Below are positions 19,165 through 43,490 of a DNA stretch of 55,738 nt, one piece after another (position 1 is the first letter of the stretch; the number at the start of each line of letters is the position of its first letter). The notes under the pieces are model-generated. The model ran no database searches, was not told the DNA's origin, and saw only the letters and a program-made list of their open reading frames with translations. The stretch is from Candidatus Dormiibacterota bacterium (lineage in GTDB: Bacteria > Chloroflexota > Dormibacteria > Aeolococcales > Aeolococcaceae). The stretch is taken from contig JBAQGL010000007.1 in the NCBI GenBank assembly GCA_049287785.1, positions 1 through 55,738 of the forward strand. Direction: 5' to 3'. Both the position numbers and the translations under genes were made by a program.

Positions 19165-19725
19165 CTAGGGAAAGATCAATCGGAAGACGATCTTGATCGC
19201 GATGATCACGATGATGTACATGATCAGCGCAGCGATCGCCGGGACGTCCAGCGCGGCGGTGGTTCCGCGACGATGCAGGGCGGCGAAAGGGGAGACCAGC
19301 GGGTTGGTCACCGACCGGATCATCTGCACCAACGGATGCCACGGGTCGGCATGGAACACCGCGAGCAGCACACGTATGAAGACGAGGATCGCAATCGCAA
19401 TTGCGACATCCACCACCACCTGCTCGATGAGCAGAGCGACGGTCTGGCCCGCGTTGATGCCGCCACCGAGGACCAGTGTCTGCAGGAGCTGCGCCACGAT
19501 GTTGATGACCACGAGCGCGAGGATCGGCGAGAAGTCGAGGCCGCTGAAGGTGGGGAGGATGCGTCGAAAGGGCGCGAGGATTGGATCGACGATGACGCGC
19601 AACCATCGAACCACCGGGTGCCACGGGCTGAGGCCGATCCATGACACAGCGATGCGCGCGATGATCAGGACCGTCAGCGCCACCTCGATGAAGCCGATGA
19701 CGTTGTAAAGAAAGAGCTGGGTCAC
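19165..19725 (-). CDS. yggT: YggT-family membrane protein with two tandem YggT-like halves
   Basis: Two repeats share the pattern ...ARI.VSW......P..R....V..P.L.PFRR..P (first half ARIAVSWIGLSPWHPVVRWLRVIVDPILAPFRRILP; second half HADPWHPLVQMIRSVTNPLVSPF). Confidence 0.7.
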   Translation of the reverse strand: MTQLFLYNVIGFIEVALTVLIIARIAVSWIGLSPWHPVVRWLRVIVDPILAPFRRILPTFSGLDFSPILALVVINIVAQLLQTLVLGGGINAGQTVALLIEQVVVDVAIAIAILVFIRVLLAVFHADPWHPLVQMIRSVTNPLVSPFAALHRRGTTAALDVPAIAALIMYIIVIIAIKIVFRLIFP

Positions 19726-20627
19726 CGAGCTGTTGCCGGCTCCTGAGCGGCGGCCGGTTCAACCGGGAAACGTTTCTCGAACCGCGAGTTGGTGCGCCGC
19801 CACAGCAGGTAGAGGAGGGGAACGCCGATCACCAGCGTCGCGATCGACGTCCATTGCGCCTCACGCAGCCCGAGTGGTCCCGGCGGCTCGCTCTTGCGAA
19901 ACTCGAACAGGATCAGCTGGCTGATCGCATACAGCGCGACGTAGACGATGGCGAGCACCCCTGGACGCACATTCCGTCGAAGCAGCACCCAGAGGATGAG
20001 CCCGATACAGATGGTTCCGAGCGCCTCGTACACCGCCGCGGGCTGATAGGCGATGCACTGGGTCCGTGTGCAGAGGCTGAACCCAGTCTGCAGGATTGCG
20101 TGTAGATTCGAGTACGCGGTCGCCCAGGGAAGGTTGCTCGGCGCACCCAGGATGTCGCCGTTGATGACGTTGCCGATGCGTCCGATCGGCTGACCAACCA
20201 CGGCGAAGATGACACCGCCGTCGAGCGCGATCCAGGGGTTGTAGCCGTAGCGCCATGCGCAGATCGCGAGGGTGATGAAGCCGGCGATGATGGCGCCGAA
20301 GAAGGCCATGCCACCCTGCCAGAACGCGATGATGTTGATGGGGTGGAGGATGTAGTTCTGCCACAGGTCGGGCTGCTGAACGACGTAGTACAACCGGCCG
20401 CCGAGCAGCCCGAAGATGATCGTCCAGACACAGATCTTCTCGGCGACCGCTTTGGGGAGCCCGCGGCGCTTCGCGTACGGAAGCACGCCGAACTGATACG
20501 CGGCAAGGAATGCCACCGCATACATGACCCCGTACCAGTGGATCGGCAGGGGCCCCAGATTCAGGACCGGGTCGACGTTGATGGTGATGAAGCCGACCGG
20601 GCCGGGGCTAACGGGCACGGCGCTCAT
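19722..20627 (-). CDS. lgt: Prolipoprotein diacylglyceryl transferase
   Basis: PIHWYGVMYAVAFLAAY..., GLLGGRLYYV, GGMAFFGAIIAG and GRIGNVINGD are Lgt signatures. Start set at MSAVPV (20627). Confidence 0.9.
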   Translation of the reverse strand: MSAVPVSPGPVGFITINVDPVLNLGPLPIHWYGVMYAVAFLAAYQFGVLPYAKRRGLPKAVAEKICVWTIIFGLLGGRLYYVVQQPDLWQNYILHPINIIAFWQGGMAFFGAIIAGFITLAICAWRYGYNPWIALDGGVIFAVVGQPIGRIGNVINGDILGAPSNLPWATAYSNLHAILQTGFSLCTRTQCIAYQPAAVYEALGTICIGLILWVLLRRNVRPGVLAIVYVALYAISQLILFEFRKSEPPGPLGLREAQWTSIATLVIGVPLLYLLWRRTNSRFEKRFPVEPAAAQEPATAR

Positions 20628-21240
20628 GATGCGGAGTTCCGGCGGCCGCATGCACCTCGAGGATGCGATAGCCGCCCTTCGACCTGACCCGTTCGACGCG
20701 ATGACCGAGACCCGCCAGCCACGCGGCGAGCGAATCGGCGCCGAGATGACGCTGGACGACCAGGGTCGCAACCGCATCCGGTTCCAGGCGGCCGATCCAG
20801 GCGAGGAGCAGTTCGTGGAGACCCTCCTTGCCGAGCCGGACCGGCGGGGTGGAGGAGACCGCGGCGAACCTGATGCCGCCTGGGACCGCGTCCGGCTCGG
20901 CGGGGACGACATTGCCCGCGCCTGCACGCTCGGCGTTGCGCGCGCAGAGGTCGAGGGCGCGGCGGTTGACATCCACCGCCCACACCCGAGCGTCCGGGTT
21001 GCGGAGCGCCACGGTGATGGCGATCGCGCCGTATCCGCATCCGACGTCGATCACCTCTCCCGGCGGGACCGCGGGCAGGCTTCGGAGCAGGAGATCGGTA
21101 CCGAAGTCGAGATGACCGTGCGCAAAGACACCGCGGTCGGTGTCGAGCTCGAAGGTCCGGTCCGGGAGCGTCACCCGGATCGTCCTCGGACGCGAGGCGA
21201 CCGCCGGATCCGGGCTGAAGTAGTGATCCTGGCCCACCAT
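20608..21240 (-). CDS. Class I SAM-dependent methyltransferase (RsmC/RlmG-like small methyltransferase domain)
   Basis: F.LDTDRGVFAHGHLDFGTDLL....GEVIDVGCGYGAIAI...AVDVN..AL......N. Start set at MVGQDHYF (21240). The 3' end overlaps the lgt start by 20 nt. Confidence 0.8.
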   Translation of the reverse strand: MVGQDHYFSPDPAVASRPRTIRVTLPDRTFELDTDRGVFAHGHLDFGTDLLLRSLPAVPPGEVIDVGCGYGAIAITVALRNPDARVWAVDVNRRALDLCARNAERAGAGNVVPAEPDAVPGGIRFAAVSSTPPVRLGKEGLHELLLAWIGRLEPDAVATLVVQRHLGADSLAAWLAGLGHRVERVRSKGGYRILEVHAAAGTPHHERRAR

Positions 21241-24439: not shown

Positions 24440-24469
24440 AGCGCCTCTGACATGAGGTCTCTCACGCTC

Positions 24470-25528
24470 CTAGAAGTCGGTGCGCAGCCTGCGATATCGG
24501 GCAGACGGACCCTTCGTGACACTCTCCACGACACCTTCGCCGCGGAGGTCTGCGAGAACCTTCCTTATCAGGTCGTCCGACACTCCCGGGCACGCCTTCC
24601 GGACGTCCTTGATGGTGAACTCCGTGGCGATCGATGATCGAACGAAAGCGCGGATCGCTTCACTCTTGGCCCCCTTGGGACCTAGGGCACCAGTGCGCGC
24701 CTCGAACTCCTTGTACGCACGAATCAAGACGCTGAGGAGATACCGAAGCCACGGGACGGGGTCATTCTTGCCGACCTCCCAATCGGTCGTGGAGGCGGCC
24801 AAGGCCTCGTAGTACGTCTCCTTGCTATCCGCGATGATCTTCTCGACGCTTATGAAGCGCCCCACGTCGTACTCACTTCGATACAGCAGCAGCAAGGTGA
24901 GGAGGCGTGACATCCGTCCGTTTCCGTCTCGAAACGGATGGATCAGTAGGAAGTCAAGGATGTACCCGGCGGTGAGCACCAGCGGATGGTGCCTCCCGCT
25001 GGCGCTTGCCGCGTTGTATGCCTCATGCAGCAGGCGCATTTCATCTTTCGTCTTCCACGCCGGGGTCGGCTTGAAGCGGACCCTGGTAGTGCCGTCCGCA
25101 AGCTCCTCGGTCACCTCGTTATCGGCGTTCTTGTACTCACCTCCACGGCCTGGACTGAACGAGTACAGCTGCTGGTGGAACTGCAGGATCACGTTCTCGG
25201 TGAACGGGATGTGCTCAGCTTTGGTGGTGTGGATGAGATCGAGGACCAGTCGATAGCCGGCGATCTCTTCCTCCGACCGGTTCAGTGGGGTGGCCTTTTC
25301 CTCGACCAGAGCTTTGATCCTGGCCGTTGGTGCGGTGATTCCTTCGATCTCGTTGGATGCCTCCGTGCTCTGGATCCTCGCGATCTTCTTGAGAGAGTCC
25401 AACCGCTCCGGGAACTGGATCGCGAAAGCTGTCTGGCGACCCTGAGCCTGGTCGACGGCGCGAAGAAGCTCGGTTACCTCGCCAGGGATCAGCCCGAGTT
25501 TCGCCTCAATATCGCCGACCGTGCTCAC
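24470..25528 (-). CDS. Fic-family protein (AMPylase-type) with N-terminal inhibitory helix motif and C-terminal winged-helix
   Basis: Fic motif HPFRDGNGRMSRLL. Inhibitory-type motif SNEIEG ([ST]xxxE[GN]). C-terminal wHTH-like IRKVLADLRGEGVVESV. GTG start. Lower G+C than its neighbours (33/60 on line 24841). Confidence 0.9.
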   Translation of the reverse strand: MSTVGDIEAKLGLIPGEVTELLRAVDQAQGRQTAFAIQFPERLDSLKKIARIQSTEASNEIEGITAPTARIKALVEEKATPLNRSEEEIAGYRLVLDLIHTTKAEHIPFTENVILQFHQQLYSFSPGRGGEYKNADNEVTEELADGTTRVRFKPTPAWKTKDEMRLLHEAYNAASASGRHHPLVLTAGYILDFLLIHPFRDGNGRMSRLLTLLLLYRSEYDVGRFISVEKIIADSKETYYEALAASTTDWEVGKNDPVPWLRYLLSVLIRAYKEFEARTGALGPKGAKSEAIRAFVRSSIATEFTIKDVRKACPGVSDDLIRKVLADLRGEGVVESVTKGPSARYRRLRTDF

Positions 25529-25534
25529 ACCCCT

Positions 25535-25563
25535 ATATTACTAGTAGCTGGGGACTCTACCAA
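25535..25563 (-). promoter_or_regulatory. Candidate sigma70-type promoter of the Fic gene
   Basis: Read on the minus strand: TTGGTA, a 17-nt spacer, then TAATAT. The -10 ends 6 nt before the GTG start, so the mRNA would be near-leaderless. Confidence 0.4.
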
Positions 25564-25632
25564 TATAAGAGGCAACAATACGAATATGGATGCCTCTTCG
25601 GCTGGGCCAGCGGCGACCTTGCGCACCAGTCT

Positions 25633-25660
25633 ATTGGTAAGAACATTGGAACTTACCAAT
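25633..25660. promoter_or_regulatory. Perfect 9-bp inverted repeat ATTGGTAAG-N10-CTTACCAAT upstream of Fic; candidate operator
   Basis: Seen directly. Related TACCAA(T/C) copies lie at 25558-25566 (overlapping the -35) and 25674-25680. Confidence 0.5.
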
Positions 25661-25704
25661 ATGGCGCTCTTCCTACCAACTTAGCCTTGCGGTGCGATCG
25701 CCCC

Positions 25705-25762
25705 TCAGCTCGCCAGCCGTACCGGTCGCACCGCGTCGTGAAGCCCCTCAGCCTGGGGTCCG
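25705..25762 (-). pseudogene. Relic of the 3' end of a DUF2442-type gene
   Basis: 25705-25749 matches 41749-41793 (the 3' end of the island DUF2442 gene) at 41 of 45 positions. The minus strand translates ...EGLHDAVRPVRLAS* versus ...EGLHDAVRPVQRAS*. Confidence 0.6.
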
Positions 25763-25815
25763 TGCCGGGAGAGGGAGTCGAACCCTCACGAGGTTGTCCT
25801 CGGCGGTTTTTGAGA
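25763..25815. repeat. attL: 53-bp direct repeat, a partial copy of the 3' part of tRNA-Leu(CAA)
   Basis: Identical base for base to 43565-43617. The sequence diverges at 25816 (g) versus 43618 (c). No tRNA 5' half is present. Confidence 0.9.
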
Positions 25816-25929
25816 GCCCGGTCCGAGCGTTTCCGCGTGCCACCGGGGGCCGGCGCGTATTCCGCAGACCCGTCGAACGTGTCTCCGCGTGCTGCTGCGG
25901 GGTGCGGGCTGATAGCGCCGTAGGGGTAC

Positions 25930-25950
25930 GCCTAGGGGTCCTGGGCACAT
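25930..25950 (+). repeat. Pair of (G/C)TAGGGGT(A/C) motifs inside attL; candidate arm-type integrase sites
   Basis: cCGTAGGGGTACgcCTAGGGGTCc. The same motif and orientation occur as the tandem pair at 43469-43490. Confidence 0.45.
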
Positions 25951-26044
25951 CGAGACCCGTGATTGCCTCCGCCGTACCCACCGCCTGGCCGGGACGCCGA
26001 CCATTTGCGGAGACAGTCGTGCTTTGGACCTGCCCTCTGAATCG

Positions 26045-26073
26045 TTGACTCCCCCCAAGTGGGGGCGTACGAT
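26045..26073 (+). promoter_or_regulatory. Candidate sigma70-type promoter reading into the exported-protein cassette
   Basis: TTGACT, then the 17-nt spacer ccccccaagtgggggcg, then TACGAT. It lies about 290 nt upstream of the first cassette gene. Confidence 0.35.
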
Positions 26074-26368
26074 CCGGCCATGGCAGGGAGATGAGTCAGG
26101 TGCTGGCACCAGGTCGCAGCGCACATTTGGAGCTTGGATGCTGGGCGCTCATTGGCGCGCTGGGGGTAAGGGGTGGTACGCGGCCGTATGAGGTTGCGAC
26201 CCGAACGGGCAATCAGAGCGTGATGTCGCCGGGCGGCAGCGAGTTGCGGTTCTCGCCGCCGCAGAGTCGCGGCGCTCTACTCCTGTTGGCATCGCATGGC
26301 ACCGCCCCTCAGGCAATCGCGGTCATTGCAGACGAATCCGAGGACGCCAGGCGGTAAGGAGGAAGGCT

Positions 26369-27448
26369 ATGGGTTTCAAGGTCAGCGCAACCCGACGCGA
26401 GGGCGCCGGATTGCCGACGGACACCAGGAAGCCCTTATCCGACCGCTTCGCAGCGTTGTTTGTTGGCCTTATCGTCGCCCTTTCAGTGAGCTTTATCGTT
26501 TCGATTGGCACTTCGAGAACGGTGCGAGCGGCCACGGCGCCGGCCTACACCGACTCGGACTATGTCGAAAGCCTGAATTACGGCAACTGGAATTCATACG
26601 GGTGCTCTGAGGTTCAGGCTGCTACGGCAGCGCACCTGACCACGATCTCGGTGATCCTGGATTTCGGACAACCGACCGACAGTGGGGGCCATTATGGGAC
26701 GACCATCTACGGCGCCGGCACGTTCGCTGTGTGGGACAGCAACGGACTCGGGATCCGAGCAGTCATCGTCCAGTTCCTTGACGGCTACTGGAATTGCCAC
26801 ACCACTAGTAGCCCTTTTATGACGTTGATCGTCGGCGTCAGTGCCATTTACAGCAAGATCAATTACAGCACCTACGAAAATGCCTACTGGATGGGCGAGG
26901 TGGTGACTGCCGAGGACACGTGGCTGCAAAACACCGGGTATATCTCGCTGATGTACACGGATGCGGGAAGCGACACCGAGACAAGTTCATCGTATGCGAC
27001 GTACAGTTACGTGAGTTCGTATCTCGGCAAGGAGTATGCTACCGATCCGAACAACTTTATCTTTGACTTTGGGGATGCGGGTAGCTGCCCAACGGGTAGC
27101 TATTCAGCGACTGGCAAGTGCGCCAACTGGACGCAAGGACAGATTCTTGACCTTTCGTGGCAGGAGATCTACGCACTGCCGCTACCAGAGGACTACAACA
27201 CAGTCCAGGCACAGGCACAGCAATGGTATTGGCTCAGTATCGGCAGCATCCGAACTGGGGATGGCCCGATACGTTTTGACGGTGAGTTAACGCAGTATCA
27301 GGCATGTCAGCAACGGGGCGGTTGCTCGGGTACGAATAATCTTCCGAGCACGGGCTGGAGCTTTCTCTACAATGAGATTTGGTCGAACACGAGTACACGT
27401 CCAGGCGACGTGATGTGGTGGTCGGATGATATCCGATATATCGGCTAA
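26369..27448 (+). CDS. Exported protein of unknown family (cassette gene A, 359 aa)
   Basis: AAGGAGG sits 7 nt upstream of the ATG. N-terminal anchor/signal FAALFVGLIVALSVSFIVSIG..VRA-AT. The mature part is rich in Y/W/G/T/S/N. No motif recognised. Confidence 0.7.
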   Translation: MGFKVSATRREGAGLPTDTRKPLSDRFAALFVGLIVALSVSFIVSIGTSRTVRAATAPAYTDSDYVESLNYGNWNSYGCSEVQAATAAHLTTISVILDFGQPTDSGGHYGTTIYGAGTFAVWDSNGLGIRAVIVQFLDGYWNCHTTSSPFMTLIVGVSAIYSKINYSTYENAYWMGEVVTAEDTWLQNTGYISLMYTDAGSDTETSSSYATYSYVSSYLGKEYATDPNNFIFDFGDAGSCPTGSYSATGKCANWTQGQILDLSWQEIYALPLPEDYNTVQAQAQQWYWLSIGSIRTGDGPIRFDGELTQYQACQQRGGCSGTNNLPSTGWSFLYNEIWSNTSTRPGDVMWWSDDIRYIG

Positions 27449-27461
27449 GGGGGATGACGAC

Positions 27462-28088
27462 ATGAGGCCTCAACGGGTGTTCAGCTGCGGCAAGGTCGTG
27501 AAACGCCTGCTCTATGGATGCCTGGCATGCGTGGCTGCGGGGACGATGGGTGCCGTGATCGTCGCTCATGCGGGAGGCAGCAGCCGTGCCGCGCAGATCA
27601 CTGGCCCTTCGTCGTATCTGGGCTCCTTGCCAGCATCAAAGCAACCAATTGTTGACCACATGAAAGCGATGATCGCCAAGGGCAATCCGCATCCAGCCGC
27701 CCCTGATGCCAATGCCTCGAAGGCTATCACGATAGCGCCGTGCACGAGGGACCTATCGCTGTTCATCAGGGGACTCACGGCTCCGCATAGCCAGATCGAC
27801 ATCCCTAACCTCCAGAACTACGTCTTCAGCAACGAGTGGGGAGCGCCCAACGGCGCTGAGTCCGTTATGGCCGGCGCGGCGGTGAGGACCGGCGCGGGGA
27901 TCGTCAGTGTCGAGCGTTGGAATCCGCCGACCGACTGCACGCCGACAGTGGCCGTCTACCAGGCCGCGCTCGGCAGCGGAATGTTGACGATCACTCGAGT
28001 CGCCCGAGGGGTGGTTTGGCTCGATGGCGCGGGGAGCTCCGTGTGGCAGTTCAGTTTCAACAGCGACAGCTTCCAGGAAGTCCCCTAA
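27462..28088 (+). CDS. Exported protein of unknown family (cassette gene B)
   Basis: Start chosen at ATG 27462 (MRPQRV), preceded by AAGGGGGA. Hydrophobic N-terminus LLYGCLACVAAGTMGAVIVAHA. Two Cys in the mature part. Confidence 0.6.
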   Translation: MRPQRVFSCGKVVKRLLYGCLACVAAGTMGAVIVAHAGGSSRAAQITGPSSYLGSLPASKQPIVDHMKAMIAKGNPHPAAPDANASKAITIAPCTRDLSLFIRGLTAPHSQIDIPNLQNYVFSNEWGAPNGAESVMAGAAVRTGAGIVSVERWNPPTDCTPTVAVYQAALGSGMLTITRVARGVVWLDGAGSSVWQFSFNSDSFQEVP

Positions 28089-28098
28089 ACTCAACTCG

Positions 28099-28632
28099 AT
28101 GCGTTATTGGGAGGCCGTGCTAGTCACGGCCGTGGTCACGGCCGTGGTCACGGCCGTGGCTGGTTGTGGCGGCACCTCAACGCCTAGTGGGACGCCTACT
28201 CCTGCCCCGAGCGGGTCGCCTTCGGCCAGCCCTGTTCCCACGCAGAGTCCCACGCCTGCTCCCACACCTACCACGGCGCCGCTGACCGAGGGACTGTCAT
28301 GGTCTGGAGCTGCGAGTGGCAGGCTCGCACAGGCTTACACGACCTGTGCGCCAAGCAGCCCCAACCTGATTGGGCTGGACGCTACTAACAACGGTGACCA
28401 AGTTCTGATTCCGATTCACGCCGCCGGAACGGTGACTGAACCTGCGAACAACTTGAGCGTCGAGCTCTACCTGTCAACCCCGGCCAGCGGCTTCACTCTG
28501 TTCTTGGCAGTCTCAGGGACGGTTATATACACCGGCGGTGGAGACACGGGCAGCATGGACGTGAGGCTCACTCCGCAGAGCAATACCTCGACTTCCGTGG
28601 CGATTCACATGAGTGGGGCGTGGCAGTGCTAA
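28099..28632 (+). CDS. Lipoprotein of unknown family (cassette gene C)
   Basis: MRYWEAVLVTAVVTAVVTAVAGC has the lipobox VAG-C. A Pro/Thr/Ser-rich linker follows, then a ~110-aa domain ending in Cys. Confidence 0.65.
   Translation: MRYWEAVLVTAVVTAVVTAVAGCGGTSTPSGTPTPAPSGSPSASPVPTQSPTPAPTPTTAPLTEGLSWSGAASGRLAQAYTTCAPSSPNLIGLDATNNGDQVLIPIHAAGTVTEPANNLSVELYLSTPASGFTLFLAVSGTVIYTGGGDTGSMDVRLTPQSNTSTSVAIHMSGAWQC
28123..28158 (+). repeat. Perfect 3 x 12-bp tandem repeat (gtcacggccgtg) inside the lipoprotein signal peptide
   Basis: Seen directly. It encodes VTAV-VTAV-VTAV. Confidence 0.9.
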
Positions 28633-29016
28633 ACGCCGGTCTCGGCTGGCTGCACTGACCGCGGTCGCATCGGCCACAATCGCGGCGGAGGCAGAAGACC
28701 CCGATCGCGCTCAGCGGATGATGTTTGGCTGTCGGAGGGCATCGTCACTCACTTCATCTATGACCCGAATCGCGGGTCGTTGGAGCAGATCTCCGGATCC
28801 AACGTGCTGCTCTACCACGTGGATCAGTCGGCTCGACACGAGTGCTCACCGACAGGTCAGGAAGTGTCGAGGAAACAGCTACCGGGGTGGTTTCAAGACC
28901 GGCAGGGAAGTGTTAGAGGATGCCGTGCAGGGTCGGCGTGAACTCGGGCGCAACGGCGGTGGTGCCGCCGGGTACCACTGCGTGCTGGCCGGTAGCGTCC
29001 CCAACTGGGGTATGAA

Positions 29017-29376
29017 ATGGGGTACGCCCGGCGGATGAGGACACCACAGCGCGGGTGCGGCTTCCATGCTGGGGCGACCCAGCTCACGGCCCAGCGCGAC
29101 CGTGGTGGCGATCGCATCGCCAACAACGCACTCTGGCGCATCGTCATGGTGCGCCTTAGCTGTGATCAGCGCACCAAGACCTACGTCGGCCGTCTCACCG
29201 CCGAGGGAATCGCCAAGCGCGACATCATCCGCTGCCTCGACGCTACGTCCCGCGAGGTGCTCCACGGGCTCCTCGCAACACCCCCGGCATCGACGCTCAC
29301 CAGTGCTCGACAAGGTATAGGAGCATCACGATTGACTCCGGGCGGAGACAGGCGTAACGTGCAGCCGTCAAGGTAG
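29017..29376 (+). pseudogene. C-terminal fragment of an IS110-family transposase (relic)
   Basis: ...QRDRGGDRIANNALWRIVMVRLSCDQRTKTYVGRLTAEGIAKRDIIRCLDATSREVLHGLL matches the conserved IS110 C-terminal pattern (RLNRGGDRxxNxAL..I...R......T..Y..R..AEGK...E..RCLKR..AREVY). The N-terminal DEDD domain is missing. Confidence 0.6.
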
Positions 29377-29436
29377 CTGCGAGCCCCGCGCCCGCACCTG
29401 TCGAGAAGGGATCAAGACCGCCCAGCACTAGGAGGT

Positions 29437-30168
29437 ATGCGGGTGAGAGGCACCCTCGTCATCCCCTTGTCTGTTGTTATCGCATTAAGCGTGATCGGTG
29501 CTGGCTCGACACAGCCGCCGAAGGTGCTGGCTGCCTCGTGCCCTGTGCCCGTGCACTACTACGGCTGGGCGAACTCGGGCTTCGGCACAACCATCGGTAC
29601 GGCGGCAACAACGACAACCTGGAGCGCCTACTCGGTGCAGAGTAGCCCGGCCGCTTTCTCTGACGAGGCGTCATGGCTTACACAAACCACGAGCAACGGC
29701 ACCTTGGAACCTCAGGCCTCTTCCATCGAGGGGGGATTCTACAGTGGGCAGGGAGTAAACCCAGCTTGGACGACAGCGATTCTGCCGTACTGGACCGAGA
29801 CGGATGGCGGCAACGAGCACGATTACGCGGCCGATGCGCTCGGAAAAGGTACTGGCGTAACGATCTACGTCGAAGGTCACTACTCTACTCAAGCTGCGAA
29901 GGTCGAAGTCGGCGGCTATTCATTCAATCTTGGCACCTACGTGGTGAACACGCCGCGGGGCAACTACGCTCAGGGTGAGGTGGATAGCAAAAATACTTCG
30001 ATGGGGGGAGGCAGTGGCGAGAGCTTTACCCAATATTTCGAGCCGGAGTCGGCGATCGGACAGTTCGGTCTTTGGGGAGCACTCACAGTCGGCTATAACT
30101 CGCCGTTTCTTGCCTCGAGGAGTAGCAGTTCGGTCTGGTCGAACTCCGGATACGGAAGCAGTTGTTGA
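29437..30168 (+). CDS. Exported protein of unknown family (cassette gene D)
   Basis: GGAGG lies upstream; the start is ATG 29437 or GTG 29443. Signal-like LVIPLSVVIALSVIGAGS. The mature part is rich in G/T/S/Y/W. Confidence 0.65.
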   Translation: MRVRGTLVIPLSVVIALSVIGAGSTQPPKVLAASCPVPVHYYGWANSGFGTTIGTAATTTTWSAYSVQSSPAAFSDEASWLTQTTSNGTLEPQASSIEGGFYSGQGVNPAWTTAILPYWTETDGGNEHDYAADALGKGTGVTIYVEGHYSTQAAKVEVGGYSFNLGTYVVNTPRGNYAQGEVDSKNTSMGGGSGESFTQYFEPESAIGQFGLWGALTVGYNSPFLASRSSSSVWSNSGYGSSC

Positions 30169-30911
30169 GACCAACGCGCACAATCCTCGCTACAGGGGCC
30201 GGGCTAATCGCGGCGTTTGCTGCTGGTCTTATCGTTGTCCTTGCCGCAAGGCATGGCACGGTGACACCAACCACCGGCGGCACTCGAGGCAGCAATGGAT
30301 CGCCTCCCACTGGGACGATTTCCCCGCTCTCAGCACAGGCGATCTCCAGCGCGTGCGGTCTTACTCCGGCTAGTTACTTGCCCAGCCCGACTGGATTCGC
30401 GATGATTGTGAATCAGTTGGACACGCAACTTCCTCTTCACAGCGCGCCAAATGACCCCCTGATTCAGGGCTTTCTGGGCGGCCGATTTGTGGGGTATCTC
30501 AACAACGCTGTGTTGACGCCTGCCAGATTGGGATCGCCAGCGCCAACTCCGCCGACGCTTCCCCTGGCGGGTGCGGTGGTCCGTGAAGTTCCTGGAGTGC
30601 TAGAAAGGTATGAGGGGCACTATCTGTTCGCCACCGACGCCGAAGCCAGCGCAATGGCTCAGCATTTTATCGTCTCGGAAGCTAATTACTCCACTGGTCA
30701 CCGGGTGGACCTCCAACTTGCGAGAGGCTTTGTGACATTCCAAGATACTGAGGGGCCGAATGACGGTCTCCATGAGCGGGCGGTTCTCGTTTATGGAAGC
30801 ACCGGCCGGGTGGCTCTCCAGCTGTCAATTCAAGGTGGGTCCTCAACAACCCCGATGGCTCTAAGGCCGACCATCTTGGAAGCAATCGCCCGCCTGCCAT
30901 TAGCTTGTTAG
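30162..30911 (+). CDS. Membrane-anchored or exported protein of unknown family (cassette gene E)
   Basis: TTG start overlapping the gene D stop by 7 nt. N-terminal TM ILATGAGLIAAFAAGLIVVLAA, then a Pro/Thr/Gly linker and a ~190-aa domain. Confidence 0.55.
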   Translation: MLRPTRTILATGAGLIAAFAAGLIVVLAARHGTVTPTTGGTRGSNGSPPTGTISPLSAQAISSACGLTPASYLPSPTGFAMIVNQLDTQLPLHSAPNDPLIQGFLGGRFVGYLNNAVLTPARLGSPAPTPPTLPLAGAVVREVPGVLERYEGHYLFATDAEASAMAQHFIVSEANYSTGHRVDLQLARGFVTFQDTEGPNDGLHERAVLVYGSTGRVALQLSIQGGSSTTPMALRPTILEAIARLPLAC

Positions 30912-30926
30912 GTTCGAGGGAGCGGC

Positions 30927-31598
30927 ATGAACTACCGAATAGTCGGTGCGATGTTTGCAGCAACTGCGCTCGGCGCGTTGACCGCTTTGATGATCACAGG
31001 GCACCCGACTGTGCCCCTGAGGGTTAATGAGCCGGCGGTCTCGTCGATCAAGGGCGCGGCCGCGGCTGTCCCACCCTGCGCCGACCGCGAGACGGTACTC
31101 GGCACCGTAGCAGCCCTTAAGTCGGGAGCGGATCCGACCGCGCTCAGGGGCACCGCGGTTCTCACCGAGAATCCATCTATATCGGGATCGCTTGGTCAAA
31201 CGCTCGTGTTCGGTTCTAACGTTCCGACGGCCGCTTCCGACCCAGGTTCGGTAGCTGCATCAGGCACTGTTTACGCTCAGAGCTCCCGTGCGTCGTTGCG
31301 CTCGTGCGAGTACCACCTCTCAGGGAGCACAGCCGACGCCGCTTACATCGCCTTGGCCAAGGGTGAGGCAGTTGCCGACGGGTTCGCGACTTCGGCGCAG
31401 CTCGATTCGGACGCGACTCTGTACTTTGTCAGTGACGATCCAACCGATTCCGATCGGCTGATTGTCACGCTTGATACCCTTGGGGCGTCGGTGCCGCAAG
31501 CCGATGGATCGACCGATCTGCACGCTTTGAAGACTTTCTTCGCATTGATCTCGGTGGGAAGCGGTCTTGTGACTGGGACAACGTCGGGCATTTGGTAA
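30927..31598 (+). CDS. Exported protein of unknown family (cassette gene F)
   Basis: GAGGGAG lies 6 nt upstream of the ATG. N-terminal hydrophobic IVGAMFAATALGALTALMI. Two Cys in the mature part. Confidence 0.6.
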   Translation: MNYRIVGAMFAATALGALTALMITGHPTVPLRVNEPAVSSIKGAAAAVPPCADRETVLGTVAALKSGADPTALRGTAVLTENPSISGSLGQTLVFGSNVPTAASDPGSVAASGTVYAQSSRASLRSCEYHLSGSTADAAYIALAKGEAVADGFATSAQLDSDATLYFVSDDPTDSDRLIVTLDTLGASVPQADGSTDLHALKTFFALISVGSGLVTGTTSGIW

Positions 31599-31891
31599 GT
31601 CTCGACACGCCGCGCCAATGCGCTGATACGTGGCGGTTCGAAGCACGAGTGGGCGACCTGTCGATCTCACCCCTCACGCGGGTAACGCCCTGGGGGTAGC
31701 GTCGGGGTCCCAAAAGCAATCTGGCCGGCGATTTGCGTCAGGTTTCCTGAGATGCCAATACACCCTTCGAACGCCTAGCCCGCCGTCATTCTTGAGACGC
31801 TTGCCCTTGGCACGAGAGGTAACGAGTGACCCGGGGAGACGGCGGACTTCTACGCTGAGAATCGAATTCAAAAACGGCACTGAAACCCCGA

Positions 31892-31938
31892 TGGTGGAGC
31901 GGGGGAGCTCGAATCTCCGACCTCTGCCGTGCGAGGGC
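31892..31938 (-). pseudogene. tRNA-Ala(CGC)-like 3' fragment ending in CCA; no 5' half
   Basis: The minus strand reads GCGCC-CTCGCAC-GGCAG-AGGTC-GGAGA-TTCGAGC-TCCCC-CGCTCCACCA. This gives an anticodon-loop-like CTCGCAC, T-loop TTCGAGC and an Ala-like GCTCCACCA end. It is 1 nt short of a canonical T-arm/acceptor. No matching 5' acceptor strand lies upstream. Confidence 0.5.
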
Positions 31939-32286
31939 GCGGGTACGAATTCGAATACGGGACGGATTGCGAGTGCCTGTTTGGCGGTCCGCATCGAGGG
32001 GATCAATCGTCGGCCCACCAGTCCGAGTTCCTGTACGACGAGGTCCTCCACCTTGGCCGAGAGCTCCTCCAGGTTCAGATCCAGCTTCCCGGAACGTCGA
32101 TTGGGACGCGGACGTCCCCACCAGTCGACGACAATCACCTGCTGTGAGCGGGATGGGATATCGAACGACCGGCGTCGGCGCATCGCCGCGCCGCCGGTTG
32201 GCAGCTCCGGCGACACCAGGATGGGGTAACGACATCACTGGGATGGGAAGCGATAACCCGGGACACGGCGTCGGCCGAGGGTAGCC

Positions 32287-35200
32287 ATGAGCACCTCGAC
32301 GGTTCTAGTCGGCGACTCGGGGACCGGCGATCGTAGACAGAAGATCCGGTCGGCGATTGCCGATTGGAAGAAGCAGCTTCTCGACCTCTCAGGGCGGAAC
32401 GCGCTTCTGTATTTCAAGGACTACAAACTCAGTACGCTCGACCTGTCTCAGGCAAGCCCTACTGGACTCGACCGACTGCTCGCTCGCGAATGGATCTCGC
32501 TGAGCTCACTCATTGGTGTTCATGGCGACGCCAACATGTCAAAAGGTCTTCGCGCTATCCGCAAGAAGGCCCTCGAGAACTACGAAGAGCGAGGAATTCA
32601 AACCTTGTTCTTTACGTGGGGGATGGTTTCGTGGCGCCCCGAAGATGAGTCGACAAAGTCCGCCCCTCGTGCGCCTCTGCTCCTATTTCCAGCCGAACTT
32701 AAGGCCAGTGATGCGCGGGAGGACGACCACCGTATCCAGCTCGTTGGCGATCCAGCGGTCAACCCGACACTCGTTCACTACCTCACAAGTACGTTCGGTG
32801 TGAACCTCGAGATTGACAGCATCGGTACGCTGCCGGGAATCGAAGGCGAGGTGGACACTCGAGACGAGGTTGGAACCATCATCGAATGGTTCGTGCGGTC
32901 GGTCAGCGGAAAGGTCCCCGATTTCTCCTACACCGATCAGCTCACGCTCGCGAACTATGCCTACCAAAAGATGCCGATGGTTGAGGATCTGGACGCCGCA
33001 GAGGAGCTGCTGATCACCAGTGACCTGGTGGCTGCAATAGCCGGAGACAGACAGGCTCAACAGTCGTGCACGTCGTCGATCGGCGATGAGCCGCCGCCGC
33101 CCGACTACATCCCGCCTGCCGACGAGTTCCTAACGCAGGATGCTGATAGCACACAAAACGCAGCCATCAACGCGGCTGTAGCCGGGCGCAGTCTGATCAT
33201 CGAGGGCCCCCCTGGTACCGGCAAGAGTCAGACCATCGCCAACCTGATCTCCGTCTTTGTCGGACGAGGCAAGCACGTGCTGTTCGTCGCCGAGAAACGC
33301 GCCGCCATCGACGCCGTCATGTCGCGCTTGGAGCGAGTTGGCCTCTCCGATCTGGTGCTCGATCTGCACAGTGGCTCGAGGTCCAAGCGGGGCCAAGTGC
33401 AGGCACTCGAGGATCTGAGAGAGCGACACGTCGCCACGATCCCGGTGGCGCAGGCATACGCGAACGACTTAGTCGCCGCTCGGAGTCGATTGGTCGACAA
33501 CGATCGCGCGATGAATGAAGTCCGAGCTCCATGGAACGTCTCGCTTCAAGAACTGTATGGGCGAATGCTCGAGTTCGCGACATCCCAGCCGGTTGCTCAT
33601 CGTTTGTCCGCCGCAGAGACGGACGCGACCTCGGCTGAGGATGTGGGTCGCCTTGCAGACGCCGCCGGATCCTGGGCTCACGCCGGAGGATCGCTCGTCC
33701 CTCACGGCACATCGGCGTGGCGTGATGCGCAGCCACGCTCGGGTGCCGATGTGGAGGCGTGCCTTGACGCCGCTCAGCGACTCACACACGACTTGATCCC
33801 TGCCCTTGTCGTCGAACTTCAGCAGGAGTGCAGACCCTTCTTGCCCGATGCCACAGTGACGCTGGCCCGCTGCGTGCAGCTTGAGTCGTTAGCAACTCGT
33901 GCTGCGAAGCTCAGCGCGGAGGTTGTCCCCGCGTTCTACGCCATCGACCTTCCGGTATTACTCGGCGACATCTCGGCGGCGCATAAGGGGCGCATCTCCC
34001 GGCTACTGCGGACAATGACATCCGGCCGGTATCGGCTCGGTGTGCGTGTGGCGCGACGCAACCTACTCGAAAAGGCGAAGGCACCTGCTTCAGAGGTCTA
34101 CGCGGTCGTCCAGTCCGCCGAGTCGTTGCGAACTGACTGGATATCGGCCGGCGGTCAGGGCGCCCCCGAGCGGGCCGGCGGTCTCGAGCGGCTACGGACC
34201 CTGATCCGCGCAACTGGGGAGGCGATCCAGCGGATGAACGCGGTCATCCCGCAGGCCTCGCTGGACTCACGCACGCTCGCACAGCTCGACACCTGGGCGA
34301 AGTGGGTCCTGTCGGATCGAGACACGGCGGTGAGGATTCCGGCGATGAGGGAATCGGCAGCGCAGCTGCGTGCAGCTGGATTTGGCCCACTCCTCAACGA
34401 GCTCATCGCTGAGCGCGCGAGCGTGGAACGAGCTCGCGAAGCCGTCGCCCTGTGCTGGCTTCAATCGGTCCTTGGTCACATCGAGGCACATGACCCGAAC
34501 GTGCGCCATCTCGGTCGCCCCCAGCAGGACGAGGTTGCCGCGCGGTATCGCCAACTGGACCACCGACACATCGAGGCGACACCGCGCCGGATCCGGCGTC
34601 GAGCTGCCGAGGCCGCAATCCGAGCCGAAGACGTCTACCGTGAGGAGGCGCTCGCCCTGAAGGCCGCCGTCCGGAGACGTAAGGGCATTCCGCCGCTGCG
34701 CGAGATCTTCGCGCGGTCGCCAAACGTCATCACCGCTTGGGCGCCATGCTGGACGATGAGCCCCTTATTGGTCAGCCAGATGCTTCCGGCGACCGGGGTG
34801 CAGCCATTTGACCTGGTCATCTTCGATGAAGCCAGTCAGGTGCTTCCGGCTGACGCTATTCCGGCGATCGCGCGCGCAAAGCAGGCAGTCGTCGCCGGCG
34901 ATCGTCGCCAGCTTCCGCCAACCACCTTCTTTGCCACGTCGACCGACGAAGATGCCGAACCTGAGGCCGAAGAGTCCGCCGACCTCGCCTTTGTTCAGGG
35001 CTATGAGTCGGTCCTCGACGTCATGGACATCTTTCTGCCGAGCAAAGATCTGATGTGGCACTACCGCAGCGAGGACGAGCGTCTCATCGCCTTCTCTAAC
35101 GCGGAGCTCTACGGTCGACGGCTTACGACGTTCCCCGGCGTCTCCTACGATGACGTGATCCGCCACGTCGTCGTTGACCCTGAGGATGCCACCACCAGCG

Positions 35201-36336
35201 AGTCCGCTCGTGGCGAAGTCGAGGCGGTCGTTCGATTGGTGCTTGAGCACGCCGAGACCCAGCCTCAGCGGTCACTCGGTGTCATCACCATGGGTACTCC
35301 ACACAAGCTGCGCATCGACGAGGCATTGCGGCGGGCGCGAGTGTTCCGTTCTGATTTGGACGCGTTCTTCAACGACGTCGCGTCGCTGGAGCCATTCTTT
35401 GTCAAGAACCTAGAACGCGTCCAGGGCGACGAACGCGACTGCATTATCGTGAGTATCGGTTATGGCAAGGGCCCTGATGGACGCATCCTCTACAACTTTG
35501 GTCCGGTCAATAAACAAGGCGGTGAGCGTCGTCTTAACGTCGCCGTGACTCGGGCGAAGCATTCGCTCGTCCTTGTCTCGACCTTCCGCGGCGACGAACT
35601 CGACGAAGCCAAGTGCCAAACGACGGGGATGAGCTTGTTGCGCAAGTACACCCTGTATGCTGATCGCGGAGGAAAGCTCGACCGCAATGCTCCGGCGGTC
35701 GCCGAGATCAACGCGTTTGAACGCGACGTCGCCGATGCACTCACGCGGAGAGGAATGGTCCTGCACCCACAGTACGGCGTGTCGGGGTATCGCATTGATT
35801 TTGTCGTGGCCCATCCGTCAATTCCGGATCGATGGGTGTTGGCGATCGAATGTGATGGAGCGACATATCACTCGGCTCAGAGTGCGAGAGATCGCGACCG
35901 GCTGCGGCAGGAACATCTGGAGCGTCTTGGATGGAGGTTCCATAGGATCTGGTCGACCGAGTGGTTCAAGAACAAGCCCAGCGAGGTCGACCGAGCGTGG
36001 ACAGCCCTTCAGGACGCGATCAGGGCAGACGAGCCTGTTCCGCCTCTGCAGAACGTAACTCCAGCAATTCCTGATCGTGGGCTAAGTGCTGGTGTCGAGG
36101 ATCCAACGCCGCTTCGCGGCCAGAGACCCTACGTGTCCACCGGCCGTGGAATTGACTCGTACAGCGACTGGGAGATCACGAGAATAGTTCAGTGGATCAA
36201 GTCCGACAGCCGCTTGCGCTCAGAGGACGAGCTTGTCTCAGCTGTGATGGATGATCTCGGTTTCACGCGCCATGGGTCCAAGATCGTTGAACGGATCACA
36301 AGTATCATCCGCTATCTGGAAGGGCGCCCGAAGTAG
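32287..36336 (+). CDS. Large DUF4011 / Upf1-like SF1 helicase / DUF559-type PD-(D/E)xK endonuclease / DUF3320-like protein (1349 aa)
   Basis: N-terminus IADWKKQLLDLSGRNALLYFKD is DUF4011-like. Walker A GPPGTGKS (33205-33228). Motif II FDLVIFDEASQV, then VVAGDRRQLPPT, MWHYRSEDERLIAFSN, VQGDERDCIIVS and GERRLNVAVTRAK. Nuclease module GYRIDFVVAH...WVLAIECDGATYHSAQSARDRDRLRQEHLERLGWRFHRIWSTEW. Confidence 0.9.
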   Translation: MSTSTVLVGDSGTGDRRQKIRSAIADWKKQLLDLSGRNALLYFKDYKLSTLDLSQASPTGLDRLLAREWISLSSLIGVHGDANMSKGLRAIRKKALENYEERGIQTLFFTWGMVSWRPEDESTKSAPRAPLLLFPAELKASDAREDDHRIQLVGDPAVNPTLVHYLTSTFGVNLEIDSIGTLPGIEGEVDTRDEVGTIIEWFVRSVSGKVPDFSYTDQLTLANYAYQKMPMVEDLDAAEELLITSDLVAAIAGDRQAQQSCTSSIGDEPPPPDYIPPADEFLTQDADSTQNAAINAAVAGRSLIIEGPPGTGKSQTIANLISVFVGRGKHVLFVAEKRAAIDAVMSRLERVGLSDLVLDLHSGSRSKRGQVQALEDLRERHVATIPVAQAYANDLVAARSRLVDNDRAMNEVRAPWNVSLQELYGRMLEFATSQPVAHRLSAAETDATSAEDVGRLADAAGSWAHAGGSLVPHGTSAWRDAQPRSGADVEACLDAAQRLTHDLIPALVVELQQECRPFLPDATVTLARCVQLESLATRAAKLSAEVVPAFYAIDLPVLLGDISAAHKGRISRLLRTMTSGRYRLGVRVARRNLLEKAKAPASEVYAVVQSAESLRTDWISAGGQGAPERAGGLERLRTLIRATGEAIQRMNAVIPQASLDSRTLAQLDTWAKWVLSDRDTAVRIPAMRESAAQLRAAGFGPLLNELIAERASVERAREAVALCWLQSVLGHIEAHDPNVRHLGRPQQDEVAARYRQLDHRHIEATPRRIRRRAAEAAIRAEDVYREEALALKAAVRRRKGIPPLREIFARSPNVITAWAPCWTMSPLLVSQMLPATGVQPFDLVIFDEASQVLPADAIPAIARAKQAVVAGDRRQLPPTTFFATSTDEDAEPEAEESADLAFVQGYESVLDVMDIFLPSKDLMWHYRSEDERLIAFSNAELYGRRLTTFPGVSYDDVIRHVVVDPEDATTSESARGEVEAVVRLVLEHAETQPQRSLGVITMGTPHKLRIDEALRRARVFRSDLDAFFNDVASLEPFFVKNLERVQGDERDCIIVSIGYGKGPDGRILYNFGPVNKQGGERRLNVAVTRAKHSLVLVSTFRGDELDEAKCQTTGMSLLRKYTLYADRGGKLDRNAPAVAEINAFERDVADALTRRGMVLHPQYGVSGYRIDFVVAHPSIPDRWVLAIECDGATYHSAQSARDRDRLRQEHLERLGWRFHRIWSTEWFKNKPSEVDRAWTALQDAIRADEPVPPLQNVTPAIPDRGLSAGVEDPTPLRGQRPYVSTGRGIDSYSDWEITRIVQWIKSDSRLRSEDELVSAVMDDLGFTRHGSKIVERITSIIRYLEGRPK

Positions 36337-40630: not shown

Positions 40631-40957
40631 CGCGGAAACGCGTCCTGCACGAGCTTCAGCGTAGGGAGAAAACGCCTACAGAGCGCTTACTTTTTCGGAA
40701 CGTTTGATCTGGACAAAATCAGCGATGCAACTGTGTGTGTGTCAGGGTCGGCGATGCGTGTGCGCGAGGCAGTGAAGGCGGTGCAGACGGACGCGTGAAG
40801 CGGGTGTGCGTCTGTCGAAGGTGAGAGGAGAAGGCCGGCGCGCGGAGGACCGAGAGGTGATGCCGAGGAGCCTTCGGTGCGAGCAGCGCGGACCGAACTC
40901 GCGCAGCGACCGACACGGGCGCTGACCGCGAGGTGGAGTTCACAGCACGAGCGGACG

Positions 40958-41107
40958 CGACGTTCGCGAACAGCGCGACGCGCGCGAATAGCGCGGTGCG
41001 CGCGAACCTCGCGAAGTGCGCTGGACGCGCGACGTCTGCCGGAAGCGCGATGTGCGCCGGAATCGCGAGGTGCGCTGGAATCGCGATATGCGCGCAATTC
41101 GCGCGAT
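40958..41107. repeat. About eight degenerate tandem repeats of 18-20 bp (consensus GTGCGCyGGAAtCGCGAn) upstream of the relaxase gene
   Basis: Best units are 41052-41069 gtgcgccggaatcgcgag and 41070-41087 gtgcgctggaatcgcgat. Flanking units decay progressively. All six reading frames show 6-aa periodic Arg/Ser text. Confidence 0.8.
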
Positions 41108-41567
41108 CCGCTCTACTCGCATGACACGTGGAAGGCGCGAATGCCGCTAAGCAGCTTTCACCGTAGGAAGTGTGTCAACGTAGTGCGTACGCTCCCCGGG
41201 CGGATGCGTCCTGAGCCATCAGTCACCCACGTCCTGGAACCGCGGTGTCAAGTAACTCTCGGACTTTTTACATGCCGAGGCTTGCTAGAAAAATGTAGGC
41301 GCTACGTAAGCAAATACATGGCATGCTCGTGCCATGGCTATCGCCGATGTGTCGCCGGGTACCGGCTATGTGCGCGGGAATCTGCGCGCGCATCAGACGA
41401 AGCTCCCTTGGGGTTCTGATGAGCTGGTGTCTCATCAAGGAGCACCCGGGATCCATGTTGCCACGGACCCACGGCGCCAACGAGCAACGCCCACCACCCC
41501 AGTGCCCTTGCTCGAGTCGGCCGCGCCGACACCTGTTGACATTGCGCCTGCATCGACGCGCACTCCG

Positions 41568-41729
41568 ATGCTGCTCACCGTTCGCGACGTCGAAGCGGAG
41601 CTGCAACTCGGTCGTACGCGAACCTACGAGCTGTTGCGCTCGGGCTCCATTCCCGTTGTCCGCGTCGGACGCGCACTCCGCGTGCCGCGCGATGCGCTGC
41701 GCCGCTGGGTCGACGAGCAGACCGCGTGA
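41568..41729 (+). CDS. xis: Excisionase-family / MerR-like helix-turn-helix DNA-binding protein
   Basis: MLLTVRDVEAELQLGRTRTYELLRSGSIPVVRVGRALRVPRDALRRWV is the typical excisionase-type HTH. The ORF could start earlier (41334), but that extension is low-complexity. Confidence 0.75.
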   Translation: MLLTVRDVEAELQLGRTRTYELLRSGSIPVVRVGRALRVPRDALRRWVDEQTA

Positions 41730-41748: not shown

Positions 41749-42000
41749 TCAGCTCGCCCGTTGTACCGGTCGCACTGCGTCGTGAAGCCCCTCCGGATCG
41801 AGGTCCGCACCGTTCGGCCACACCAGCGTGCCCAGCTCTGGATCCACGCTCACGCTGTTGAACTGAGCAATGTCACGGAGCGGCTCGAACATCTCACCCC
41901 ACAGCTCGGCGGCCAGGTCGATGTCGCCCACCATCCCGTCGCTGAACGTGAGCCGGAGACGGTACTCACCGAGGCGCTCAACGCCCGTGACCTTGACCAT
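41749..42000 (-). CDS. DUF2442-domain protein
   Basis: The 83-aa text MVKVTGVERLGEYRLRLTFSDGMVGDIDLA......F.PL.D...F..V.VDPELGTLVWPNGADLDPE matches the DUF2442 pattern. Confidence 0.75.
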   Translation of the reverse strand: MVKVTGVERLGEYRLRLTFSDGMVGDIDLAAELWGEMFEPLRDIAQFNSVSVDPELGTLVWPNGADLDPEGLHDAVRPVQRAS

Positions 42001-42009
42001 CTCCCAATC

Positions 42010-42279
42010 CTATGCGAGCGGCTCGATGGACGCCAGCGCCGTGCGTTCGATCACCCGTTGCCAGTTGTCTCGCAGCTCCTGCTCGTGCAGGGTCGCCCAT
42101 TCCATGACATGCCCAAGCGCGCGAGCGGGCAGCGAACCGTCAAGCACCACCAGCGGCTCGATCCCGATCGAAGCCTCATGCTCTCCATAGGTCGCGTGAA
42201 AGTGGGCGGCATGGTGTTGCCCGCCGGTCTCCCAGTACATGGTGATGACGATGCCGTAGAAGGCGCTGATCCGCGGCAC
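42010..42279 (-). CDS. DUF4160-domain protein
   Basis: The 89-aa text MPRISAFYGIVITMYW.......HFHA.YGEHEA matches the DUF4160 N-terminal pattern. It starts 2 nt after the integrase stop. Confidence 0.75.
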   Translation of the reverse strand: MPRISAFYGIVITMYWETGGQHHAAHFHATYGEHEASIGIEPLVVLDGSLPARALGHVMEWATLHEQELRDNWQRVIERTALASIEPLA

Positions 42280-43468: not shown

Positions 43469-43490
43469 CTGTAGGGGTACTGTAGGGGTA
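43469..43490 (+). repeat. Perfect 2 x 11-bp tandem repeat CTGTAGGGGTA just upstream of int; candidate arm-type integrase sites
   Basis: Seen directly. The TAGGGGT core is shared with 25931-25937 and 25943-25949. Confidence 0.5.

Follow-up and report, generated by a model that had tools for sequence, protein, structure and literature searches.

Two predicted extracytoplasmic three-gene operons side by side on a mobilizable element at a tRNA-Leu gene of an uncultured soil bacterium

A secreted hydrolase accompanied by tethered accessory proteins and carried on an island follows a familiar logic. In the glycoside hydrolases (GH) of clan GH-A, the catalytic carboxylates lie at the C-terminal ends of strands beta4 and beta7. 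Wall-degrading effectors of the type VI secretion system and of the colicin M type are the analogues for a secreted lytic toxin with its immunity proteins, and CwlT, TcpG and VirB1 are those for a hydrolase that opens the wall when a mobile element is transferred. Here we describe a cassette of six consecutive genes, A to F (26369–31598), in a 55,738-nt stretch of DNA (the window), contig JBAQGL010000007.1 of a metagenome-assembled genome (MAG) of Candidatus Dormiibacterota, an uncultured soil bacterium. The cassette is cargo of an integrative mobilizable element of about 17.9 kb at a tRNA-Leu gene. In the reading that we favor, to which we give about an even chance, it consists of two unrelated three-gene extracytoplasmic operons – A-B-C, encoding a new wall-glycosidase-like enzyme, a partner domain and a lipoprotein, and D-E-F. 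The structural and genomic parts of this reading are far firmer than the functional parts.

All six open reading frames (ORFs) are on the plus strand, exactly where the initial annotation had placed them: gene A (359 aa) at 26369–27448, gene B (208 aa) at 27462–28088, gene C (177 aa) at 28099–28632, gene D (243 aa) at 29437–30168, gene E (249 aa, with a TTG start) at 30162–30911 and gene F (223 aa) at 30927–31598. The tight packing noted earlier was confirmed, with 10 nt between B and C, a 7-nt overlap of D and E, and 15 nt between E and F. A and B, which had been said to abut, do so only loosely – they are separated by 13 nt, or overlap by 23 nt if B begins at an alternative start at 27426. 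Good Shine-Dalgarno sequences had been attributed to most of the genes; Shine-Dalgarno-like motifs (GGAGG or GAGGG) are present before A, B, D and F and absent before C and E. The two operons are 804 nt apart, and between them is a relic of an IS110-family transposase, its C-terminal ca. 110 aa (29017–29376, plus strand), with no full-length ORF. The relic escapes Pfam and NCBIfam, but a tblastn search of plasmids found 42–54% identity to the C-termini of annotated IS110 transposases (best E 6e-14). The division into A-B-C and D-E-F that had been proposed from the letters was supported.

Each of the six proteins has one strongly hydrophobic stretch, and in each it is N-terminal (Kyte-Doolittle 19-residue maxima 2.07–2.63, start residues 5–28). 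The N-terminal signal or anchor that had been ascribed to all six is thus supported by maxima above 2.0 throughout, and the products look exported or membrane-tethered. By this hydrophobicity heuristic A, B, D, E and F would carry export signals, and C has the N-terminus of a lipoprotein, MRYWEAVLVTAVVTAVVTAVAG|C, with the lipobox V-A-G-C. AxA-type c-regions are kept among the homologues of A and D. Six N-terminally hydrophobic products in a row are unlikely to have arisen by chance. Compared with an 85%-identical relative, the ratio of non-synonymous to synonymous substitution rates (dN/dS) is 0.24 for D, 0.27 for E and 0.21 for F, so these genes are under purifying selection and are real. 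Every one of the six proteins has a conserved pair of cysteines.

As the initial annotation had suspected, none of the six proteins belongs to a recognisable family: searches of Pfam, NCBIfam, PHROGs and PADLOC gave no match, and profiles of families A, D, E and F found nothing meaningful in the PDB. Pfam searches with many homologues of A, B, D, E and F returned sub-threshold noise, with one real match, a Laminin_G_3 domain in one A homologue. All six families therefore appear to be undescribed in the libraries searched. Paralogy among the six was ruled out by blastp and by all-against-all hhalign.

The cassette had been taken for a single coherent module, and this did not hold. No homology is detectable between the two sets of three genes, and they are separate in every other locus examined. 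At least four loci (L006, L011, L012 and L032) carry A-B-C, with the genes in this order, and lack D-E-F. One of these, L006, is an element with TrwC, a TrwB-like coupling protein, an M48 peptidase, ArdA, a single-stranded DNA-binding protein, a primase and an integrase; in L011 the genes are chromosomal, beside cysS, and in L012 they are flanked by the insertion sequence (IS) IS3. D-E-F is found without A, B or C in 14 loci (L009, L010 and 12 metagenome loci), with F-like genes next to D in 12 and E-like genes in 10 of them; for the metagenome loci alone the numbers are 10 and 8. The trio is complete in half of the 12 metagenome loci; four others are on short contigs that lack one partner, and in two the contig breaks off inside D. 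The order is D-E-F or D-F-E, and the neighbours are housekeeping genes (panC, mnmG, manC), a transposon and, once, an SLT_3-ricin lysozyme. Adjacency of all six genes was seen only in near-identical copies of one element (the window, L001, L002/L050 and L003). These joint copies are 99.5–100% identical and thus count as one event. The best explanation is that IS activity brought the two operons side by side in the cargo of the island.

Protein A would be a Sec-exported enzyme with a TIM-barrel-like fold. A signal peptide with the c-region VRA|AT is followed by an alpha/beta domain of ca. 300 aa. Relatives are few – 17 among 5.8e9 protein clusters – and the gene was found in 21 GTDB species genomes, mainly of Chloroflexota with a few Actinomycetota; cultured carriers include the Chloroflexota Thermanaerothrix daxensis and T. 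solaris. The AlphaFold2 (AF2) model built from the 17-sequence alignment (predicted local distance difference test, pLDDT, 78; predicted template-modelling score, pTM, 0.77) has eight beta/alpha units after the signal peptide. A had been described as beta-rich; the model is instead an alternating beta/alpha barrel. Foldseek comparison with the PDB and BFVD gave weak matches (best E 3e-4 to 6e-4, template-modelling score, TM, 0.37–0.45, 6–14% identity), and those that lead are TIM-barrel glycoside hydrolases of families GH5, GH53, GH18, GH10, GH17 and GH35.

Among 23 diverse members of the A family, G100, G139, E204, G235, C240, P273, E274 and Y276 are invariant, and D202, D354 and three further cysteines are nearly so. 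The family has its own motifs (ILDFG, PLPEIY and WSxDI) and four conserved cysteines. E204 follows a predicted strand at residues 195–202 and E274 one at residues 269–271, by our own count of the predicted strands the fourth and the sixth. These two residues would most likely form a glycosidase active site. A GH25 muramidase was considered for A and rejected – hhalign against the Cpl-1 catalytic domain gave a probability of 0.1%, and the Foldseek top 50 of the PDB contained no GH25-annotated match.

One relative of A is especially informative. The Bacillus plasmid protein QDF27384.1, found by tblastn against plasmids (E 9e-19), has an N-terminal Amidase_3 peptidoglycan amidase domain (residues 5–177, E 1e-49) and, behind it, the whole A domain with all the conserved motifs intact; a signal peptide is absent. 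It is from Bacillus tropicus/thuringiensis LM1212 (LM1212-W3 plasmid p3, CP041076.1; L048 5185–6807). Its record is labelled N-acetylmuramoyl-L-alanine amidase only, with the A-type domain, the C-terminal ca. 270 aa, unannotated. The fusion ties the A domain to the cell wall, and the substrate of A would most likely be cell wall, either peptidoglycan or a wall-linked glycan. The gene lies between IS5 copies, with a second amidase adjacent and an Iota-toxin Ib gene nearby. Another A homologue, P0006 (L006 10001–11695), has the N-terminal Laminin_G_3 (concanavalin-like lectin/glucanase) domain mentioned above and is encoded alongside B and C. No relatives of the A domain were found on viral contigs or in phage genomes (INPHARED, IMG/VR).

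Protein B begins with a hydrophobic anchor or signal and has two conserved cysteines. Its C-terminal beta-rich domain of ca. 90 aa is homologous to a C-terminal extension of ca. 200 residues in the A homologues P0010, P0013, P0014 and P0016, with blastp E-values down to 1.9e-9 (P0013) and an hhalign probability of 93% (E 3.3e-7). These fused homologues come from Chloroflexia, and since B is there covalently part of A, the B domain would act in physical association with A. In most loci the gene after A is a B-like ORF, and in L017 there are two successive B-like genes, each with two copies of the domain. B would be a membrane-tethered partner of A, which probably binds the substrate or positions the enzyme. 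As far as the searched libraries show, neither this Rosetta-stone link between A and B nor the fusion of Amidase_3 to A has been reported.

Protein C has a Pro/Thr-rich linker and a domain of ca. 115 aa with two conserved cysteines. Its lipobox, already recognised in the initial annotation, was seen directly, and the window contains an Lgt gene (19722–20972). Homologues of C also have a lipobox, LSAC in L006 and LAGC in L011. They follow A-B in L006, L011, L012 and L032, only in the A-B subfamily nearest to the window, and C may be a lipoprotein accessory limited to this Dormibacterota-type subfamily. The h-region of its signal (VTAVVTAVVTAV) is encoded by a perfect 12-bp tandem repeat of 3.1 copies (28123–28159), a tract that is possibly slippage-prone.

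In the second operon, protein D has a signal peptide and a domain of ca. 205 aa rich in Y, W, G, T, S and N, probably all-beta. A word-indexed search found 5 relatives and a full HMMER search 115 clusters at 50% identity, almost all of them single-domain; the named members are from MAGs of Dormibacteraceae and Actinomycetota. E98 and G104 are invariant, and C35, W80, Q179, E181 and G192 nearly so. The invariant Glu and the Q179-G-E181 motif would suggest catalysis. The AF2 model, from a 5-sequence alignment, had a pLDDT of 30 and no usable fold. D had no match in Pfam or the PDB, and no relatives on plasmids, viral contigs or phage genomes.

Two specific assignments of D were tried. The spacing of 83 residues between E98 and E181, the same as between Q53 and E136 of scytalidoglutamic peptidase (SGP), prompted the idea of an eqolisin (peptidase G1), which was rejected: hhalign of 50 D-family sequences against SGP (1S2B) gave a probability of 0.6%, and D has no match to Pfam Peptidase_A4/G1. 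A beta-jelly-roll glycosidase of family GH12 or GH11 was rejected as well (hhalign probability 0.2% each, against unverified template sequences).

E and F would be membrane-tethered partners that constantly accompany D, and are probably disulfide-bonded. E has an N-terminal membrane anchor, replaced by a lipobox in some homologues; its conserved cysteines are Cys65 and Cys249, and its motifs are WPLVPLxGPVV, LEVY, ER and QGG. F has an N-terminal hydrophobic anchor or signal, conserved Cys51 and Cys127, the motifs LRSCNY and DDP, and a C-terminal Trp; the word-indexed search found only 2 clusters of relatives. The E and F families showed no relation to any family in Pfam or the PDB. D-E-F can be described, from its gene content and conservation, as a self-contained trio that is predicted to be extracytoplasmic.

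The element that carries both operons is delimited by a 53-bp direct repeat. The left copy (attL, 25763–25815) repeats the 3’ part of a tRNA-Leu(CAA) gene at 43564–43648 (minus strand; ARAGORN, Rfam), the integration target, whose 3’ 53 nt (43564–43616) are the right copy (attR). The two are identical in all 53 aligned bases, and a 22-nt core of the attachment (att) site occurs exactly twice in the window, against 0 occurrences expected. Next to the tRNA gene is a tyrosine integrase (42281–43462, minus strand; Pfam Phage_integrase E 6.8e-23, Phage_int_SAM_3 E 1.8e-08). From att to att the element contains the cassette, a helicase-nuclease gene, a 266-aa ORF without a family, a TrwC relaxase, an excisionase-like helix-turn-helix (HTH) ORF and the integrase. 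The relaxase (981 aa, 37685–40630, minus strand) is TrwC-type with an AAA_30 helicase domain (Pfam TrwC E 2.9e-68, AAA_30 E 3.6e-50). By its integrase, its relaxase and the att repeats that flank it at a tRNA gene, this is an integrative mobilizable element, and a complete mating-pair apparatus was not detected. Pfam scans, limited to the larger ORFs, detected no coupling protein or type IV secretion system genes.

Comparison with other loci showed that the element is a mosaic. The region 25763–36312 recurs with 99.99% identity in L002/L050 (ERZ25039604:contig_43981), and the identity begins exactly at the att repeat. To the left of it the flanks differ: L002/L050 has a major facilitator superfamily (MFS) gene, and the homologous flank is only 88% identical. 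On the other side the helicase gene is followed by a different integrase next to a tRNA-Ser gene, with no relaxase gene between these two. The left 10.5 kb of the element is thus joined to a different integrase in another genome, and so nearly identical a copy in another genomic and element context indicates recent transfer. The cassette had been proposed as cargo of a mobilizable island, and this copy, together with the att repeats, the integrase and the relaxase, supports it. A third copy of the att repeat, which could have explained the mosaic, was searched for in the window and not found. A related element, L009, has a further arrangement in which D-E-F (85% DNA identity) directly abuts the relaxase gene (91.6% identical) without the helicase, and IS3 precedes D-E-F in the place of A-B-C.

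The helicase-nuclease gene (32287–36336, plus strand) encodes a defence-type protein of 1349 aa with Pfam DUF4011, SF1 helicase and MTES_1575 nuclease domains. It matches the PADLOC candidate models PDC-S37 (E 1.9e-263) and Hhe (E 8e-139), and accompanies the cassette in L002/L050. It is not present in L009, which lacks the segment 31670–37685; a 180-aa ORF without a family between F and the helicase (31674–32216, minus strand; a gene call of 169 aa in the ENA and Logan assemblies) falls in the same segment. Among the PADLOC defence models, only this protein and a Fic protein just outside the element were matched, and none of the six cassette proteins. The excisionase-like HTH ORF (41334–41729, plus strand; PADLOC mad1 E 1.4e-4) is followed by two small ORFs on the integrase side (41749–42000 and 42010–42279, both on the minus strand), which may resemble a DUF2442/DUF4160 pair.

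The element also contains repeats. About seven imperfect 18-bp tandem units with a 54-bp super-period (40956–41103) lie 330–470 bp upstream of the TrwC start, and this array is a candidate oriT or iteron region. Short tandem repeats with the common core GTAGGGGTA lie just inside both ends of the element (25916–25939 and 43469–43490), one ca. 100 bp from attL and the other between the integrase start and the tRNA gene; they are candidate arm-type binding sites of the integrase. A scan for promoters and terminators gave nothing above chance.

Immediately outside attL is the gene for the Fic-domain protein (24470–25528, minus strand; PADLOC SoFic E 4e-32), in a stretch of low G+C (59.6% over 24440–25762) that was possibly left behind by a previous insertion at this tRNA-Leu site. 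Its position is taken in L002/L050 by the MFS gene, flanked by another short fragment of a tRNA-Leu end (L050 168–186). At the end of the window, the 5’ part of a tmRNA gene (Rfam RF00023, 55 bits) is found at 55635–55738 on the plus strand, cut by the window end.

Candidatus Dormibacteria are soil-dwelling bacteria with a median G+C of 66.9%, a sister group of the Chloroflexota or a class inside it, within the largely monoderm Terrabacteria (PMC10608941). The backbone of the window has 67.6–68.1% G+C. The cassette had been described as ca. 53% G+C in a backbone of ca. 70%; measured over the cassette as a whole it has 60.2% (55.6–62.9% gene by gene), a dip of ca. 8 points and not 17, and 47–53% is reached only by single 60-nt lines. 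G+C at third codon positions is 58–75% in the cassette genes, compared to 84–88% in host genes. The two halves of the island also differ, with 61.2% G+C in the left half and 67.6% in the right, relaxase-integrase half.

Of the functions that had been suggested for the cassette, an envelope-acting enzyme set is favored for A-B-C, from the predicted TIM-barrel-like fold, the invariant acidic residues and the Bacillus amidase fusion. Several observations weigh against the favored reading. A resembles glycoside hydrolases in structure only weakly (TM 0.37–0.45), and no Pfam, NCBIfam or PDB profile links A or its relatives to any GH family (three family profiles against the PDB). E204 and E274 were placed along the sequence by predicted strands, and the clustering of the invariant residues at the mouth of the barrel is a prediction. 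The A domain in the Bacillus fusion could serve for binding to the wall instead of catalysis, and the Thermanaerothrix homologues of A have no detectable B neighbour. For D-E-F, neither a fold nor a fusion to a known domain was found, and the neighbouring genes are uninformative; an enzymatic role of D is a guess from its invariant acidic residues.

A more specific form of this reading is put forward tentatively, and is less likely than not. A would found a new family of cell-wall glycoside hydrolases of monoderm Terrabacteria that needs its partner B, D-E-F would be a second undescribed extracytoplasmic system of an enzyme plus tethered partners, and both would occasionally be mobilised. Its scope is Chloroflexota, Dormibacterota, some Actinomycetota and one Bacillus plasmid for A, and Dormibacterota and Actinomycetota for D-E-F.

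The operons might instead encode antibacterial effectors with their immunity proteins. A and/or D would be a secreted lytic toxin, and B and C, or E and F, would be the tethered immunity proteins. The gene layout agrees with this – an enzyme-like secreted protein and, directly downstream, small proteins that are membrane-tethered on the outside – as do the carriage of the modules on mobile elements, next to a defence gene, and their sparse, patchy distribution. However, the covalent link of B to A in several Chloroflexia and its tandem copies in L017 point to a domain that assists, binds or positions, and away from an inhibitor. Housekeeping genes surround many of the A-B and D-E-F loci, and neither a dedicated secretion system nor a domain for toxin delivery was detected. 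We regard this explanation as unlikely.

A role of A-B-C in transfer is unlikely too, slightly more so. A-B-C would be the wall-opening hydrolase of the element, digesting peptidoglycan locally in conjugation or mobilization; the operon is found twice on relaxase-bearing elements (the window and L006), and the Bacillus fusion links the A domain to peptidoglycan hydrolysis. Most A-B loci, however, are chromosomal with no transfer genes nearby. The closely related L009 element retains D-E-F and the relaxase with no A-B-C, while in L002/L050 the cassette is kept and the stretch from the helicase to the other integrase contains no relaxase gene, and the G+C content of the cassette is foreign to the relaxase-integrase half (61.2% vs. 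67.6%).

Non-enzymatic proteins for adhesion, an S-layer, surface exclusion or receptor masking, all of which were among the functions first suggested, have no specific support and are improbable. All six products are predicted to be surface-exposed and are on a mobile element, and Thr, Ser, Gly and aromatic residues abound in D and C, but the proteins are small and have no repeats, no SLH- or LPXTG-type anchors and no Pfam match to an adhesin or S-layer protein. A and D have invariant acidic residues typical of active sites, and relatives on phages or viral contigs were not found.

A coherent envelope or surface system of all six genes is very improbable and largely refuted: the genes are contiguous, on one strand, all apparently exported, and together in the window, L001, L002/L050 and L003, but these copies are nearly identical, the two operons are apart in every diverged relative and divided here by the IS110 relic and the 804-nt gap, and in L009 D-E-F is preceded by IS3 with no C gene.

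If A is a wall glycosidase, it would represent a new hydrolase family, an orphan at the sequence level and unusual in having an obligatory partner domain. Envelope turnover in Chloroflexota and Dormibacterota would then gain a first handle; these lineages are abundant in soil, and their envelopes have hardly been studied. D-E-F, with ca. 115 clusters of D at 50% identity and no annotation, is a compact target for structure-based discovery of function. There is a caution for annotation as well – a run of secreted hypothetical proteins on an island need not be one system, and may consist of two unrelated modules that IS activity has joined.

Compared to described enzymes, A is most like the clan GH-A-type hydrolases (GH5 mannanases and cellulases, GH53 galactanases, GH10 and GH17) and GH18: it is secreted, has eight predicted beta/alpha units, and its two invariant Glu come just after predicted barrel strands. 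The strands are the fourth and sixth by our own count, while the canonical ones are the fourth and seventh, and A differs from these enzymes in its low TM, the lack of a profile match, its four conserved cysteines and its own motifs. Like endolysins and autolysins that combine Amidase_3 with a second module, QDF27384.1 has Amidase_3 and then an A-type domain. Unlike these bifunctional enzymes, A of the window has no amidase domain and has its own signal peptide, and the phages of INPHARED and IMG/VR lack the A domain. With the GH25 (Chalaropsis-type) muramidases A shares a D-x-E where a central barrel strand ends, and its Asp/Glu motifs come in the same order (judged from Cpl-1, with the sequence verified against the PDB). 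It differs from them in the hhalign result with Cpl-1 (0.1%), and a BFVD phage “lysozyme” of unstated family ranks 11th, with TM 0.31. The element resembles tRNA-integrated mobilizable islands in its 53-bp att repeats, an integrase by the tRNA gene, a MOBF/TrwC relaxase, an excisionase-like HTH protein and cargo at the distal end. It departs from the typical ones as a mosaic, with its left 10.5 kb found elsewhere with another integrase at a tRNA-Ser gene.

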